Shown here: positions 12,227 through 15,200 of the stretch, one piece after another
Layout of the letters: every line of letters starts with the position of its first letter
How positions within the stretch are numbered: the first letter of the stretch is position 1
DNA from: Candidatus Anstonellales archaeon
Lineage (GTDB): Archaea; Micrarchaeota; Micrarchaeia; Anstonellales; J096
Length of the DNA stretch: 15,869 nt
Assembly (NCBI GenBank): GCA_038740615.1
Contig: JAVYLQ010000011.1
Span: forward strand, 1 to 15,869
Direction: 5' to 3'
Position numbers: made by a program

Positions 12227-15200
12227 CCCACTTAACGCTTTCGCTTACCCCCTACCACTGCACAGAGCAGCAGTAAGGAGCAGTGGGCATCATTTACAGC
12301 TAGGACTACAGGGGTATCTAATCCCTTTTGCTCCCCTAGCCTTCGCCCCTCACCGTCGGACGCGTTTTGGAGGAGCGCCTTCGCCACTGGTGGTCCGTTC
12401 AGGTTCAACGCATTTTACCGCTAGCCTGAACGTACCCTCCTCCTCCCCCGCTCCCTAGTTTAGTAGTATACACTGCACGCGTTGGAGTTGAGCTCCAACA
12501 TTTCACAGTGCACACACTAAACCGGCTACGGGCGCTTTAAGCCCAATAATCGTGAGCACCACTTGAGGCGCCGGTGTTACCGCGGCGGCTGCCACCGGTC
12601 TTGCCCACACCCTTATTCCCCAAGCTTTTTACACTTGGGAAAAGATATAGGCTTAAGACCCATATCACTCGGAGTCCCCCTGTCACGCTTTCGCGCATTG
12701 CAGAGGTTTCGCGGCTGCTGCACCCCGTAGGGCTAGGGCCCTTGTCTCAGTGCCCTTCTGGGGGCTCCCACTTTCATGGCCCCTAGGGATCATAGGCTTG
12801 GTGAGCCGTTACCTCACCAACTACCATAATCCCACACAGACCTATCCTAAGGCTACTATGGGCTATTCCCCATAGTACTTTCGGAGAGAGAACATTCCAG
12901 TATCTCTCTCCTATTCTGGTTTATCCTCAGTTTCCCGAGGTTATCCAGATCCTTAGGGTAAGTTGTCCATGCGTTACTCAGCCGTTCGCCATCCTACCAA
13001 AGGGTAGGATTAGACTTGCATGCCTTAGTCGGACTCCGATAGCAGTGCTCTCCAGCAGGATCAACTGGAATCACGATTAGGAGTACGAGGAATTGGCTTG
13101 CACTACCCACTCTATCCTACTCCAACCGGAGTATTCACATTTATTTAATAGTAACGAAACCTTTTTAAAGTTTACTAATTTATCTCTAGAATACTAAAGA
13201 TTTAAAAATAAATCAGAATATATTTATTTAACGAAGGTGAAAATACAATGGGTGAAAAAGTAGGGAAGGAGTTAGTAAAGAGAGAGAAGGGATACCTGTA
13301 TTATGTAGGTAAAGACGGAAGAGTTTATAGAGTACCTAGCAGAGCTATGAGAAACAAGGTAAAAAACACAAAGCCAGAACCAGTAACAAAAGAGGTTATA
13401 AAGAGAGAAAGCGGCTATCTCTACTATGTGGGTAAATCTGGTTACGTAGAAAGATCTAAGATGAAGAGAAGAAAGTAATCCCTTTCTTTTTATTTTTCTT
13501 CCTCTATATATGACTCAATTTTCCATATCAAATTCTCTAAATCCTCAAAATATTGATTTGAAAGAGGAGCTGGGTAAATTGGGATTTAATGATAAGGAGA
13601 TTGATATATTGCTATCTAGGAAGACTATGAAATATAAGTTTCTATCTGATAGTGAATTTCTGGATGTAGTAAAATCTACTCTGGACTATATTGATCCAAA
13701 GAATAATCTGTCTGGATTTTTAAAATTACTAGATATAAATGCAAATAAGTTCCTTAGAAACAAATTCTCAACTATGAATCAGCAGAGTGAAATATATGTT
13801 GTTAATAGTATGTTGGGATTTGGAATTGAATATTCTGATGCAAAAAGAATTCTAAAGTTATATAAATCTCAAGTCCGACTAGCTACCCCATATGATTTTG
13901 TGGATGTAGCTAGAAAAATATATCGTCCAAATATGGATATTGATATTTTTATAAATAAGCTGTTTAGAGCTTTAGGTGAAATAAGATTTGTTAAGGATGA
14001 ATTTACCAGAAAAGGGATAGTCTTCAAATATCAGATCCCACCTTATGTGATAGATCAGGAAGATTTTGATATTGGTGTTGATATAGCTGTTGGTAAGATC
14101 ATTATTGATAATAAGGAGCTCTATAGGGAGATAAGAGAAATGGTATTAGATAGAGCTAGAGATGTTGATCTAAAAGATTTATATGCGGTAATGATAGATG
14201 ATAGGTTTGTAGAGTCATATTCAAAAGTAAAAGAAGTTCTTGATTATGGGGTTGAGGTAGTAGATCTGATAGCGTCTATCCTATATGTAGCTGCTGGAGG
14301 TAGATTCAGATCAGTCAAGAACATATCTTAAATAACGGGCCCGAGGGGATTCGAACCCCTGACCTATGGGTTAAAAGCCCACCGCTCTACCAGGCTGAGC
14401 TACGGGCCCTGTTTGTTATTTATAATGTAAAGCTTTAAATGCGTTCAGTTCTATCTTTTAATACTATCCAGAATCCTTGTACAGATACATCCTCAGTAGG
14501 AATGTTGATAATGATCTGTCCATTTTCATCAGATCTGTATGTTTGATCAAATATTCTTACACTCACATTTCTAACAGGTCTATTAGTTATACTCCTAAAT
14601 GTAATGATTGTTCTATCATTTAGCATCATCACCCTCATTTTCAGTACTCTTAGATAAGCTAATAATGATAGTAGGAATAGTGTAAATAGGAGTGGTAGTT
14701 GTTGAGGTAGAATTATATTAAGAATCTGGTACATTAAGTTTCCTCTAATTCTCTCATCTTCTGTAGTAGTTGTTGTTAATTCAGGTTGGTCCTCTTGTTC
14801 TATCTGATGTGCAGGTTCAGGTTCTCTAACCTCCTCAACAATCCTGGGTTGAATATCTGTAGAATCTAATACAATTTCTTTCTGTTCTAACTGTTCTGAA
14901 ATATCTCTTATATCTAAGATTTCTCTTTGCTCTTCTTGATCAGATGTACTTATAGAACTTGATCTGGCTGAAGCTGAATCTCTACTATCTTGCTGATACT
15001 CCTCTTGTAGTATGGGTTGTTGTTCCTGTTGATCCTCTGGAGGAATCTGTTCTTCTCCGCCTGATCTTCTTATAGAGAATAGAATAGTTTCAGATACATT
15101 ATTGATCCCATCAGTGCAACTGATAATTAGTTCATATGATCCTCTACTGAACTCTAGATTTATAGAGTATGTTGATCCATTCTGTAGCTGCACTGTGTTA

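Follow-up and report, generated by a model that had tools for sequence, protein, structure and literature searches.

Locus and Sequence of the Mini-Protein

The window analyzed here, a stretch of 15,869 nucleotides from a Candidatus Anstonellales archaeon (Micrarchaeota), encodes a very small protein with a strong positive charge, hereafter the mini-protein (Table 1). Its gene stands alone, has a canonical Shine-Dalgarno sequence and diverges from the 16S rRNA gene, with 176 bp between them. The AT-rich spacer presumably holds the promoters of both genes, and the T-rich tract that follows the stop codon is a possible archaeal oligo-T terminator, both assignments being based on sequence features. 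No hairpin terminator was found by the terminator scan, a sigma-70/hairpin method that is not applicable to archaea. In a metatranscriptome library, one contig of 156 nt was identical across positions 13272-13414, a match that does not prove transcription. For a neighboring 273-aa gene no contig was present in the RNA library, in which the runs consist of contigs, so that depth and gaps are uninformative on expression. Nine loci from six relatives were also compared, and adjacency to the 16S rRNA gene was retained solely in the same genus (L173) and absent at the eight others (L172, L174-L180). Because its conservation stops at the genus, this adjacency was dropped as a functional clue.

Table 1. 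Features of the mini-protein gene and its surroundings in the window
Feature	Position	Strand	Evidence
Basic mini-protein CDS, 76 aa, stop codon included	13248..13478	+	ORF list, sequence, 143 homolog clusters, 1455 representative clusters
Module 1, residues 1-38	13248..13361	+	Internal repeat z 13.9; AF2 strands 16-20, 26-30; invariant L17, Y18, G24
Module 1 beta-hairpin (predicted), residues 16-30	13293-13337	+	AF2 strands
Module 2, residues 39-76, ending in K/R tail KMKRRK	13362..13475	+	Repeat alignment; AF2 strands 57-61, 67-71; invariant G56, Y59
Module 2 beta-hairpin (predicted), residues 57-71	13416-13460	+	AF2 strands
Shine-Dalgarno-like AGGTGA, 7 nt 5' of ATG	13235..13240	+	Sequence; complementary to the 16S 3' end ...GATCACCTC of the same genome
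AT-rich spacer between the mini-protein gene and the divergent 16S rRNA gene	13072..13234	.	Sequence
T-rich tract 3' of the stop codon	13479..13509	+	Sequence
16S rRNA gene, divergent neighbor (context)	11582-13071	-	Rfam RF01959, 1451 bits

The mini-protein has a pI of 10.23, with 23 Lys and Arg residues against 8 Asp and Glu in a total of 76, and contains neither Cys nor His; the four Cys/His ligands and two knuckles of a zinc ribbon are accordingly missing from it. Alignment of its first half to its second scored 95, compared with 24.5 ± 5.1 in 2000 shuffles (z 13.9), and the resulting modules of about 36 aa both follow the pattern K-R-E-x-G-Y-L-Y-[YF]-[VIL]-x-K-x-G-x-[VI], which, present twice within a basic protein of 70-90 aa, is the signature of the family. 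A search with the family profile retrieved the window gene at E 3.8e-32. A paralog is encoded elsewhere in the same genome (G000:C6:3667-3888, minus strand); if it starts at the ATG that GGTGA precedes by 4 nt (GGTGA-ATG), it is 79 aa long, and it shares 82% identity with the mini-protein across residues 1-74. Two copies are thus kept in a genome of 0.54 Mb. Columns M1, L17, Y18, G24, G56, and Y59 were invariant in an alignment of 25 sequences. Among 81 members the median pI was 10.2, with values of at least 9 in 76; at least four of the last eight residues were Lys or Arg in 52, and 42 lacked Cys. Some family members carry 3-5 Cys at the flanks of the hairpins. The genome-wide survey's note had described two very basic paralogs (23 Lys and Arg, 82% identity), a duplicated module and the same invariant positions except M1, and these observations were all reproduced, the last of them in an independent alignment.

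Size and Distribution of the Family

A word-indexed search yielded 184 candidates, of which 143 clusters reached E≤0.01, the same number as before, and an exhaustive profile search extended the family to 1455 clusters (50% identity), including multi-module forms and fusions. The family is unnamed and very large, consists of basic, all-beta mini-proteins built from tandem modules, and occurs in archaea, bacteria, and viruses; no relative of it was detected in Pfam, NCBIfam, or PDB, and its breadth exceeds the first estimate. In the Micrarchaeota sample the gene was found in 171 of 201 genomes (131 of the 152 of high quality) and in 17 of 25 families, which confirms its near-core status there, and it was missing from the clades f13 (0/6), f14 (0/10), and f17 (0/4); the family labels used here do not correspond one to one to those of the survey's note. 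The gene is no speciality of Micrarchaeota: a second DPANN phylum has it about as often (120 of 151 genomes), and it is present in a Thermoplasmata class (23 of 151 genomes), in Methanomicrobiales, Marsarchaeota, and Woesearchaeota (carriers with histones in 5/5 genomes), in genuine bacterial genomes and on virus-like contigs (IMG/VR).

Predicted Structure and Comparison With Known Proteins

AF2 models built with 25 sequences (pLDDT 85.9, pTM 0.67) and with 81 sequences (pLDDT 90.4, pTM 0.72) contained the same four strands (Table 1), a confident prediction of an all-beta protein with two hairpins that agrees with the model obtained in the survey. Pfam gave nothing over the cut-off for the window protein and no family in more than 7/25 or 4/81 members, in keeping with the earlier report that no Pfam family matches consistently; with NCBIfam nothing was consistent either, any one family being found in at most 5/25 members. 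A profile search of PDB sequences yielded nothing significant, as reported before, although the best E-value here was 0.16 and the survey, with a different alignment, had nothing below 0.3. Nothing usable was obtained with Foldseek against PDB (best E 0.48) or BFVD (best E 0.13), nor with VIA-align in two runs over 48,161 chains (best Z 2.4 and 2.6), so the lack of a fold match noted earlier was upheld, and the ESM Atlas returned solely unnamed clusters of the same family. Since a two-hairpin model of 76 residues gives fold searches almost no power, the new mini-fold proposed in the survey's note is not claimed here. The model is non-globular (best Z 2.6), and the mini-protein may therefore need a partner or oligomerization to fold. 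Homology to a known nucleic-acid-binding domain was not detected in Pfam, NCBIfam, or PDB sequences. The literature searches turned up no account of the family or of its motif, and the passages of PMC8975820 on a 'hypothetical protein' contain nothing on the mini-protein gene.

The only library family matched recurrently was phrog_9154, a phage family of unknown function (17/25 members at E≤0.1, best 1.8e-4; window protein E 0.093 only), which agrees with the presence of viral members in IMG/VR. A tblastn search with a bacterial-type member found no relative among 50,697 phage records. Tandem WW domains resemble the mini-protein in being built from a three-strand/hairpin mini-module of about 35 residues with a Y-Y-V strand; a WW-like aromatic-x-x-P follows the hairpin in 11/25 members, and tandem WW pairs appeared among the non-significant Foldseek matches. 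WW domains lack a strong basic charge, recognize proline peptides and are marked by a pair of tryptophans spaced about 20-22 residues. Trp is missing altogether from the window protein, which also gave no match to WW (PF00397) at E≤10, and matches below the curated threshold were obtained for 2/25 (best E 6.4e-4) and 1/81 members. The best PDB-sequence matches were YWTD/LDL-receptor class B repeats of LRP2 and LRP6 (E 0.16-0.39), and several beta-propeller proteins were among the top fold matches (Z≤2.6). The resemblances to WW, the proteasome hairpin, Cache, hemopexin, and YWTD were not taken as homology because the matches reflect one common hairpin motif in few members.

A working analogy for the mechanism proposed below is provided by Sul7d (Sso7d/Sac7d) and Cren7, in which hydrophobic/aromatic side chains and lysines on the face of a beta-sheet contact the minor groove of DNA. 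They share with the mini-protein a very small size (about 60 aa in their case), a basic charge and an all-beta structure, and they are lineage-restricted and often present in several copies. They show no sequence relation to it, however, as neither PF02294 nor PF11520 matches the mini-protein, and they are single SH3-like five-strand barrels of 7 kDa from Crenarchaeota, whereas the mini-protein is predicted to consist of tandem hairpin modules (four strands, two hairpins in the model) and is found in archaea, bacteria, and viruses. This barrel was not among the matches with Z≥2 in the two VIA-align searches, which have little power at 76 residues. The beta-ribbon arms of HU/HTa and the Lys-rich tails of histone-H1-like proteins offer a further parallel, with basic hairpins and K-rich linkers or tails as DNA-contacting elements, but the mini-protein lacks the HU dimerization core. 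The S/TPKK motif binds the minor groove; [ST]P[KR][KR] occurs in the linker of 6/14 bacterial-type members, and an SPKK-like motif is absent from the window protein and from 80/81 representatives.

Fused Domains and Gene Neighborhoods

Scanning of 39 long members revealed a Pfam domain in 11 and no recognizable domain in the other 28. In P0251, ParB_N and HTH_ParB are followed by a module pair and a K-rich tail at the C-terminal end; P0230 is a HIT protein with a C-terminal module, P0270 carries module pairs on both flanks of an ASCH domain, and zinc-ribbon fusions were found in P0124, P0125, and P0200. Other fusions are to membrane proteins: P0235 has an N-terminal module pair, then a transmembrane helix and an OmpA domain, P0122 (886 aa) has eight modules after a transmembrane helix, and further cases are P0227 (DoxX) and P0215. 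These membrane-protein fusions are as compatible with an all-purpose 'sticky' module of the cytoplasm as with a DNA binder.

The paralog and its closest relatives lie in the order HerA, GNAT, mini-protein gene, 90-aa ORF, RadA, and this RadA cluster was found at 5 loci (Rad51 match of 287 bits). In 25 of 50 bacterial-type loci the gene is followed, after 96 bp and in the same orientation, by uvrA, 11 Thermoplasmata loci have a class II ribonucleotide reductase downstream, and on virus-like contigs the gene stands amid an SNF2/DEAD helicase, DNA methylases, and VRR-NUC nucleases. DNA metabolism thus recurs in the neighborhoods of unrelated lineages, which we count in favor of DNA binding. In Micrarchaeota, however, the gene found most often next to it (24 loci) encodes a PAC2 proteasome chaperone, lies in divergent orientation and has nothing to do with DNA, and no neighbor was conserved in all lineages among the locus sets compared. 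Ribosomal-protein or translation genes were not found in the recurring neighborhood clusters, of each of which one or two representatives were scanned.

Histones and Other Chromatin Proteins

The histone fold is helix-strand-helix, and the all-beta model of the mini-protein does not have it. No match to the histone family PF00808 was obtained anywhere in the genome at E≤1, nor to HU/IHF (PF00216) or Cren7 (PF11520) at E≤0.1, and an MC1 gene was not found in it. The sole Sul7d (PF02294) match in the genome lies elsewhere, on contig C19 (15.5 bits, below the cut-off), and the mini-protein had none at E≤10. The genome does contain one gene for Alba (PF01918), and is therefore not without a known chromatin protein. 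Alba, a small abundant archaeal chromatin protein that binds DNA and RNA, is comparable to what we propose for the mini-protein but belongs to a different fold and family. Passages of PMC6136690 describe Alba as present in Micrarchaeota generally.

The survey's note had suggested that the mini-protein stands in for histones. That it is a histone substitute, the principal DNA packager of histone-less Micrarchaeota, is in our judgment very unlikely. The tallies behind the idea were confirmed: PF00808 is present in 149 of 201 Micrarchaeota and absent from this genome and the 8 others of its family, and all nine carry the mini-protein gene, five of them in two copies. Both genes occur in 119 Micrarchaeota genomes, the mini-protein gene alone in 52, the histone gene alone in 30 and neither in 0 (naive Fisher p 7e-5), counts that include two unpublished genomes (G029, G198), which carry both genes and on which the numbers do not depend. 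Five Thermoplasmata carriers lacking both histone and HU also fit a substitute. The histone-less genomes, however, consist of one order plus two f12 genomes, and those without the mini-protein belong to few families, so that few independent events underlie the Micrarchaeota pattern and the p-value is inflated by kinship. Most carriers (119 of the 201 genomes) also have histones, and there was no association in the second DPANN phylum (94 with both, 26 with the mini-protein only, 23 with histone only, 8 with neither; naive odds ratio 1.26). In the Thermoplasmata class 125/151 genomes do without both the mini-protein and histones, and 103/151 without HU as well. Alba is at hand in the genome studied here, and the role is impossible for bacterial and viral members. 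At present the suggestion is not supported, as the pattern comes from few clades of a single phylum and recurs neither in the second phylum nor in Thermoplasmata. The distribution of HU in Thermoplasmata, where 22 strong carriers and 23 HU holders overlap only in G344 (a weak mini-protein match), was not used as evidence of complementarity because chance alone would give about 3 shared genomes and the genomes may be close kin.

Discussion

Our tentative proposal, which we rate somewhat short of an even chance, is that the mini-protein is a small, probably abundant, sequence-nonspecific nucleic-acid binder, most likely of double-stranded DNA, and that it would have an architectural, nucleoid-associated role beside that of Alba. 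In favor of it we count the stand-alone gene with its canonical Shine-Dalgarno sequence, the basic composition, the all-beta model, the invariant aromatic and Gly positions, the fusions, the DNA-metabolism neighbors, the two copies in this genome, the failure to find genes for histones, HU, MC1, Cren7, or Sul7d in it and, with the reserve stated above, the metatranscriptome contig. Each pseudo-symmetric module would form a tight beta-hairpin (G-Y-L-Y-Y-V, a K-x-G turn and a second strand), with the conserved tyrosines on one face and the conserved Lys/Arg residues (the KRE cap, K22, K63) flanking it, and the Lys/Arg-rich linker and C-terminal tail would add electrostatic affinity. With two such surfaces per chain of 76 residues, the mini-protein could reach two adjacent sites on the backbone or in the groove, which would allow it to bend the polymer, stiffen it, or form bridges.

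Counted against this proposal are the missing homology to nucleic-acid-binding domains, the lack of a neighbor shared by all lineages, the membrane-protein fusions and the non-globular model, and also that basic charge and beta-hairpins are just as compatible with binding of RNA or the ribosome. The mini-protein could serve as a chaperone for rRNA or for ribosome assembly, as an accessory ribosomal protein or as a factor of the hibernation type, with its basic hairpins and tails threaded onto structured RNA much like the extensions of many small ribosomal proteins. A tiny, very basic, all-beta protein with K/R tails whose gene is near-universal in the minimal genomes of two DPANN phyla would fit such a role, as would the fusion to ASCH, an RNA-associated domain, and the position directly divergent from the 16S rRNA gene in this genus. 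We nevertheless consider it unlikely, since the 16S adjacency was seen at one of the nine loci from six relatives, in the same genus, and the scanned representatives (1-2 per cluster) of the recurring neighborhoods held no ribosomal-protein or translation genes; absence from whole clades (f13, f14, f17) is also unusual for a ribosome component, and the viral DNA-metabolism modules and the ParB fusion point to DNA. Alternatively, the module might be a generic cytoplasmic adaptor that binds another polyanion (anionic membrane lipids, polyphosphate) or a protein, or self-assembles, the stand-alone form being a scaffold or stress protein. Module pairs at the cytoplasmic ends of P0235, P0227, P0122, and P0215 argue for it, as do the weak look-alikes in sequence and fold (beta-propeller blades, WW, Cache, proteasome hairpins), all of them beta modules that bind proteins or ligands. 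But the stand-alone form, by far the commonest, has no hydrophobic or amphipathic segment, and an adaptor leaves the ParB, HIT, and ASCH fusions and the DNA-repair and viral neighborhoods unexplained, which makes it distinctly unlikely. A small proteasome-linked partner or mimic acting with a PAC2-type assembly chaperone seems scarcely credible. It was brought up by the divergent PAC2 gene (PF09754; two representatives scanned of the 24 loci), by matches of 3/25 members to the Proteasome profile PF00227 (best E 2.5e-5) and by one homolog that one source names '20S proteasome alpha/beta subunit'. The PF00227 match, however, covers a single hairpin motif (G-x-L-Y-Y-V-D-x-x-G) that is also like WW, Cache, and YWTD strands, and not the Ntn-hydrolase domain of about 190 aa, and the PAC2 adjacency is confined to one Micrarchaeota group and absent at both copies in this genome and in all other lineages.

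Taken further, the nucleoid-associated role would make the family an unrecognised class of chromatin proteins of archaea, bacteria, and viruses, a two-hairpin 'mini-clamp' that would coat DNA or bridge it and, together with Alba, would be a principal packager in the histone-less Micrarchaeota order and in the Thermoplasmata carriers without histones and HU; we hold this extension to be decidedly unlikely.

A family of 1455 unnamed clusters that is near-core in two DPANN phyla and has a confident model without a solved match represents a clear annotation gap. If its members are ribosome or RNA factors, they would be an unrecognised translation component of reduced genomes. If, as we tentatively favor, they bind DNA, the polyphyletic chromatin proteins of prokaryotes would gain a new family of very wide distribution, and one that would provide a handle on genome organization in ultra-small archaea.

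The gene, its locus and its paralog

The mini-protein, a basic product built of two beta-hairpin modules, is encoded next to the 16S rRNA gene, from which it is separated by an AT-rich spacer of 176 bp. It has a pI of 10.23, contains 23 Lys and Arg and 8 Asp and Glu residues, and is free of Cys, His and Trp. Its two halves align to each other with a score of 95, compared to 24.5 +/- 5.1 in 2000 shuffles (z 13.9). The second copy, on contig C6 of the same genome (assembly of 541,905 b in 31 contigs, 83% complete), has its own GGTGA-ATG start. In a metatranscriptome library, a kind of library that can contain DNA, one contig of 156 nt was identical to positions 13272-13414 of the window.

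Features of the window and of related loci in the same genome
Feature	Position	Strand	Basis or remark
Partial tRNA match	84-142	+	43.9 bits; model positions 8-63 of 71 only
Housekeeping genes	182-11496		including eRF1-domain protein, metallo-beta-lactamase-fold protein, class Ib tRNA synthetase, tRNA-binding domain protein, ribosomal protein S8e, GHMP kinase
16S rRNA gene, divergent from mini-protein gene	11582-13071	-	RF01959, 1451 bits
AGGTGA	7 nt 5' of mini-protein ATG	+	pairs with own 16S rRNA 3' end ...GATCACCTC
Mini-protein ORF, 76 codons	13248-13478	+	ORF list and sequence
T-rich tract	directly 3' of mini-protein stop codon		sequence
273-aa ORF, 3' of mini-protein gene	13510-14331	+	Pfam, none above threshold
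tRNA gene	14336-14409	-	
Asn/Ser/Thr-rich protein, 470 aa or longer	14435-15847	-	open at window end
Second mini-protein copy	C6:3667-3888		82% identical
90-aa ORF between paralog and RadA	L002 (locus on C6) 1072-1344	-	no Pfam family
GNAT gene directly upstream of paralog	L002 1758-2375	-	PF00583
Alba gene	C1:68008-68199		61 bits

The Asn/Ser/Thr-rich protein shows weak similarity to Ig-like domains (Big_13) and contains an acidic Q/E-rich linker as well as a hydrophobic segment; it is a probable surface protein. The partial tRNA match, close to the start of the contig, could come from a truncated call or from an unusual tRNA. Eight ORFs in the stretch with the housekeeping genes (182-11496) matched no Pfam family at E<=1e-5.

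Module architecture and predicted structure

Each module conforms to the consensus v-x-K-x-x-I-K-R-E-x-G-Y-L-Y-[YF]-V-[DG]-K-x-G-x-V-x-R-a-x-M, and a Lys/Arg/Gly linker or tail comes after it. In the AlphaFold2 predictions, the G-Y-L-Y-Y-V strand of each module forms with the next strand a tight hairpin around K-x-G, and short bridges lie at residues 3-4 and 44-45. Long members (P0122, P0123, P0124, P0125, P0127, P0200) carry their modules in pairs joined by long linkers, and the pair is the evolutionary unit. Single-module ORFs of about 45-80 aa, matching one profile half only, occur in genomes of a second DPANN phylum (G380, G387, G391, G398, G448, G461, G462, G474 and others). Some Nanoarchaeota and Omnitrophota members (P0045, P0084, P0086, P0098, P0110) have three to five Cys/His flanking the hairpins (C-K-C ... 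C; H-K-C ... C), which may represent an optional clamp held by a metal or a disulfide, whereas the window protein has none of them.

The figures of the genome-wide survey's note came out the same or close wherever they were re-run: 143 homolog clusters, the same invariant columns, again no consistent Pfam family, and four strands at the same positions (pLDDT 85.9 with 25 sequences; 90.4 and pTM 0.72 with 81). Neither Foldseek (best E 0.48) nor VIA-align (best Z 2.4 and 2.6 over 48,161 chains) gave a match of weight. No fold match reached Z>=3, which is unusual but to be expected of a model that is small and non-globular, and it does not establish the new mini-fold proposed in that note. Weak library matches of a few members each to proteasome, WW, Cache, hemopexin, YWTD and choline-binding families all fell on one common hairpin motif; homology was rejected and they are read as convergent strands.

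Size and spread of the family

A profile of 25 members, run against 1.84 billion representatives, returned 1455 clusters at E<=0.001, of which 491 reached E<=1e-10; 565 relatives turned up when one genome per prokaryotic species was scanned. The best 80 of these, assigned to lineages by record title, comprised 37 Micrarchaeota, 27 Thermoplasmata, 7 Methanomicrobiales (Methanoregula, Methanolinea), 2 Woesearchaeota, 1 Marsarchaeota, 3 unassigned archaea and 3 bins labelled bacterial. The mini-protein was found in 120/151 genomes of the second DPANN phylum, that of a Woesearchaeota-labelled carrier (about 23 of the 120 being weak or single-module matches), and in 23/151 genomes of the class of a Thermoplasmata carrier (around G201).

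A second alignment, of bacterial-type members, yielded 556 relatives on metagenome contigs as long as 788 kb, with dapB, an aminotransferase, folK, panC, aspartate dehydrogenase and uvrA as neighbouring genes. Misbinned archaeal DNA was rejected as the source; these loci lie on real bacterial chromosomes. The gene also lies on eight IMG/VR contigs. Two of these, 139 kb and 88 kb long (L019/L085, L020/L084), are filed both as IMG/VR viral and in cellular bins ('archaeon', 'Patescibacteria group bacterium'), with VRR-NUC, a glycosyltransferase and many family-less ORFs around the gene.

The gene and the family are real, and a literature search found no printed description. The breadth of the family across archaea, bacteria and virus-like contigs means that it is no speciality of Micrarchaeota, on which the earlier description had centred it, or even of DPANN.

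Composition, fusions and gene neighbourhoods

Clues to function come from composition, fusions, neighbourhoods and the chromatin proteins of the window's own genome, all four indirect. The family median pI is 10.2 (>= 9 in 76/81 members), and 52/81 members have K/R-rich tails. Pfam domains were found in 11 of the 39 long members scanned, two of the 11 being repeat look-alikes (sCache_2, Hemopexin). The fusions comprise ParB_N + HTH_ParB with a C-terminal module pair and K-rich tail, HIT joined to a single module, ASCH flanked by module pairs, zinc ribbons in three long members (one of which has GAF and a prokaryotic RING too), OmpA preceded by a transmembrane helix, DoxX and a truncated S26 peptidase. 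The targets of the ParB, HIT and ASCH partners are DNA, nucleotides or RNA, and in the membrane-protein fusions the module sits at cytoplasmic termini.

No neighbour was universal among the loci compared, for which one or two representatives per BLAST-defined neighbour cluster were scanned with Pfam. Genes of DNA metabolism nevertheless recur beside it across unrelated lineages: 25/50 bacterial-type loci have uvrA 96 bp downstream of the mini-protein gene, in the same orientation, a class II ribonucleotide reductase is downstream in 11 Thermoplasmata loci, virus-like contigs place the gene among a helicase, an N6/N4 DNA methylase and VRR-NUC, and the C6 paralog and its three closest relatives share the order HerA - GNAT - gene - 90-aa ORF - RadA - NMD3. 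Against this pattern counts the setting of 24 Micrarchaeota loci (within L007-L014, L023-L072), with a divergent PAC2 gene, then DUF192 and aldehyde dehydrogenase. The divergent PAC2-family (proteasome assembly chaperone) gene is the arrangement in most other Micrarchaeota; a link of the mini-protein to the proteasome is nonetheless very improbable.

The 90-aa ORF, whose product has an acidic N-terminus and a basic, beta-rich C-terminus, is kept in place in four loci (L002, L004, L005, L006). The GNAT gene directly precedes the lysine-rich paralog in three (L002, L004, L005), itself preceded by a HerA-type ATPase (DUF87). Alba is under acetylation control, which this arrangement recalls.

Chromatin proteins and the histone question

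In the window's own genome, profiles for histone, HU, MC1, Cren7 and Sul7d found nothing credible, in agreement with its earlier description as histone-less; it has one Alba gene. Henneman et al. (2018; PMC6136690) record Micrarchaeota as encoding histones and mention Alba for these phyla; the histone-less order found here is therefore a real feature of a sub-lineage, but Alba is the obvious known chromatin candidate there.

Among 201 Micrarchaeota genomes, 171 carried the mini-protein and 149 a histone, as counted before; combining the per-family tallies gave both in 119, mini-protein only in 52, histone only in 30 and neither in 0 (naive Fisher p 7e-5, ignoring kinship). The 52 histone-less genomes all belong to families with the mini-protein in every sampled genome (f1, f4-f9, with 35/37 in f6, and f12, 2/6), and the 30 without the mini-protein to families with histone in every genome (f13, f14, f17, f19-22, f25, plus five genomes in f10 and f11). 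That no genome is without both proteins would suit a histone substitute proper, but the pattern is only suggestive because few clade-level events lie behind it. Nor does it repeat elsewhere. The second DPANN phylum gave 94/26/23/8 for the same four classes (odds ratio 1.26, p 0.63). In the Thermoplasmata class, with histone in 4/151 and HU in 23/151, 125/151 genomes are without histone and mini-protein, and 103/151 without histone, HU and mini-protein; by these three profiles, the 103 use another main chromatin protein. Five Thermoplasmata carriers with neither histone nor HU are intriguing, yet the same holds for most non-carriers in the class, and histones are present in each of the five carriers checked among Methanomicrobiales, Marsarchaeota and Woesearchaeota. 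Unpublished genomes enter the Micrarchaeota (G029, G198) and Thermoplasmata (G308) tallies; no conclusion hinges on them. With Alba at hand as well, we consider a substitute for histones improbable. A general polyanion or protein adaptor is a little less so, though still unlikely, and an RNA or ribosome factor is the least unlikely of these alternatives.

We tentatively favour a non-specific nucleic-acid-binding architectural protein, for which DNA would be a likelier ligand than RNA. The retention of two copies of a 76-aa gene in a 0.54-Mb genome fits an abundant structural role. The proposal that the protein stands in for histones is not supported beyond one phylum-level coincidence, whereas the other half of that proposal may well hold, namely that the mini-protein is a component of chromatin.
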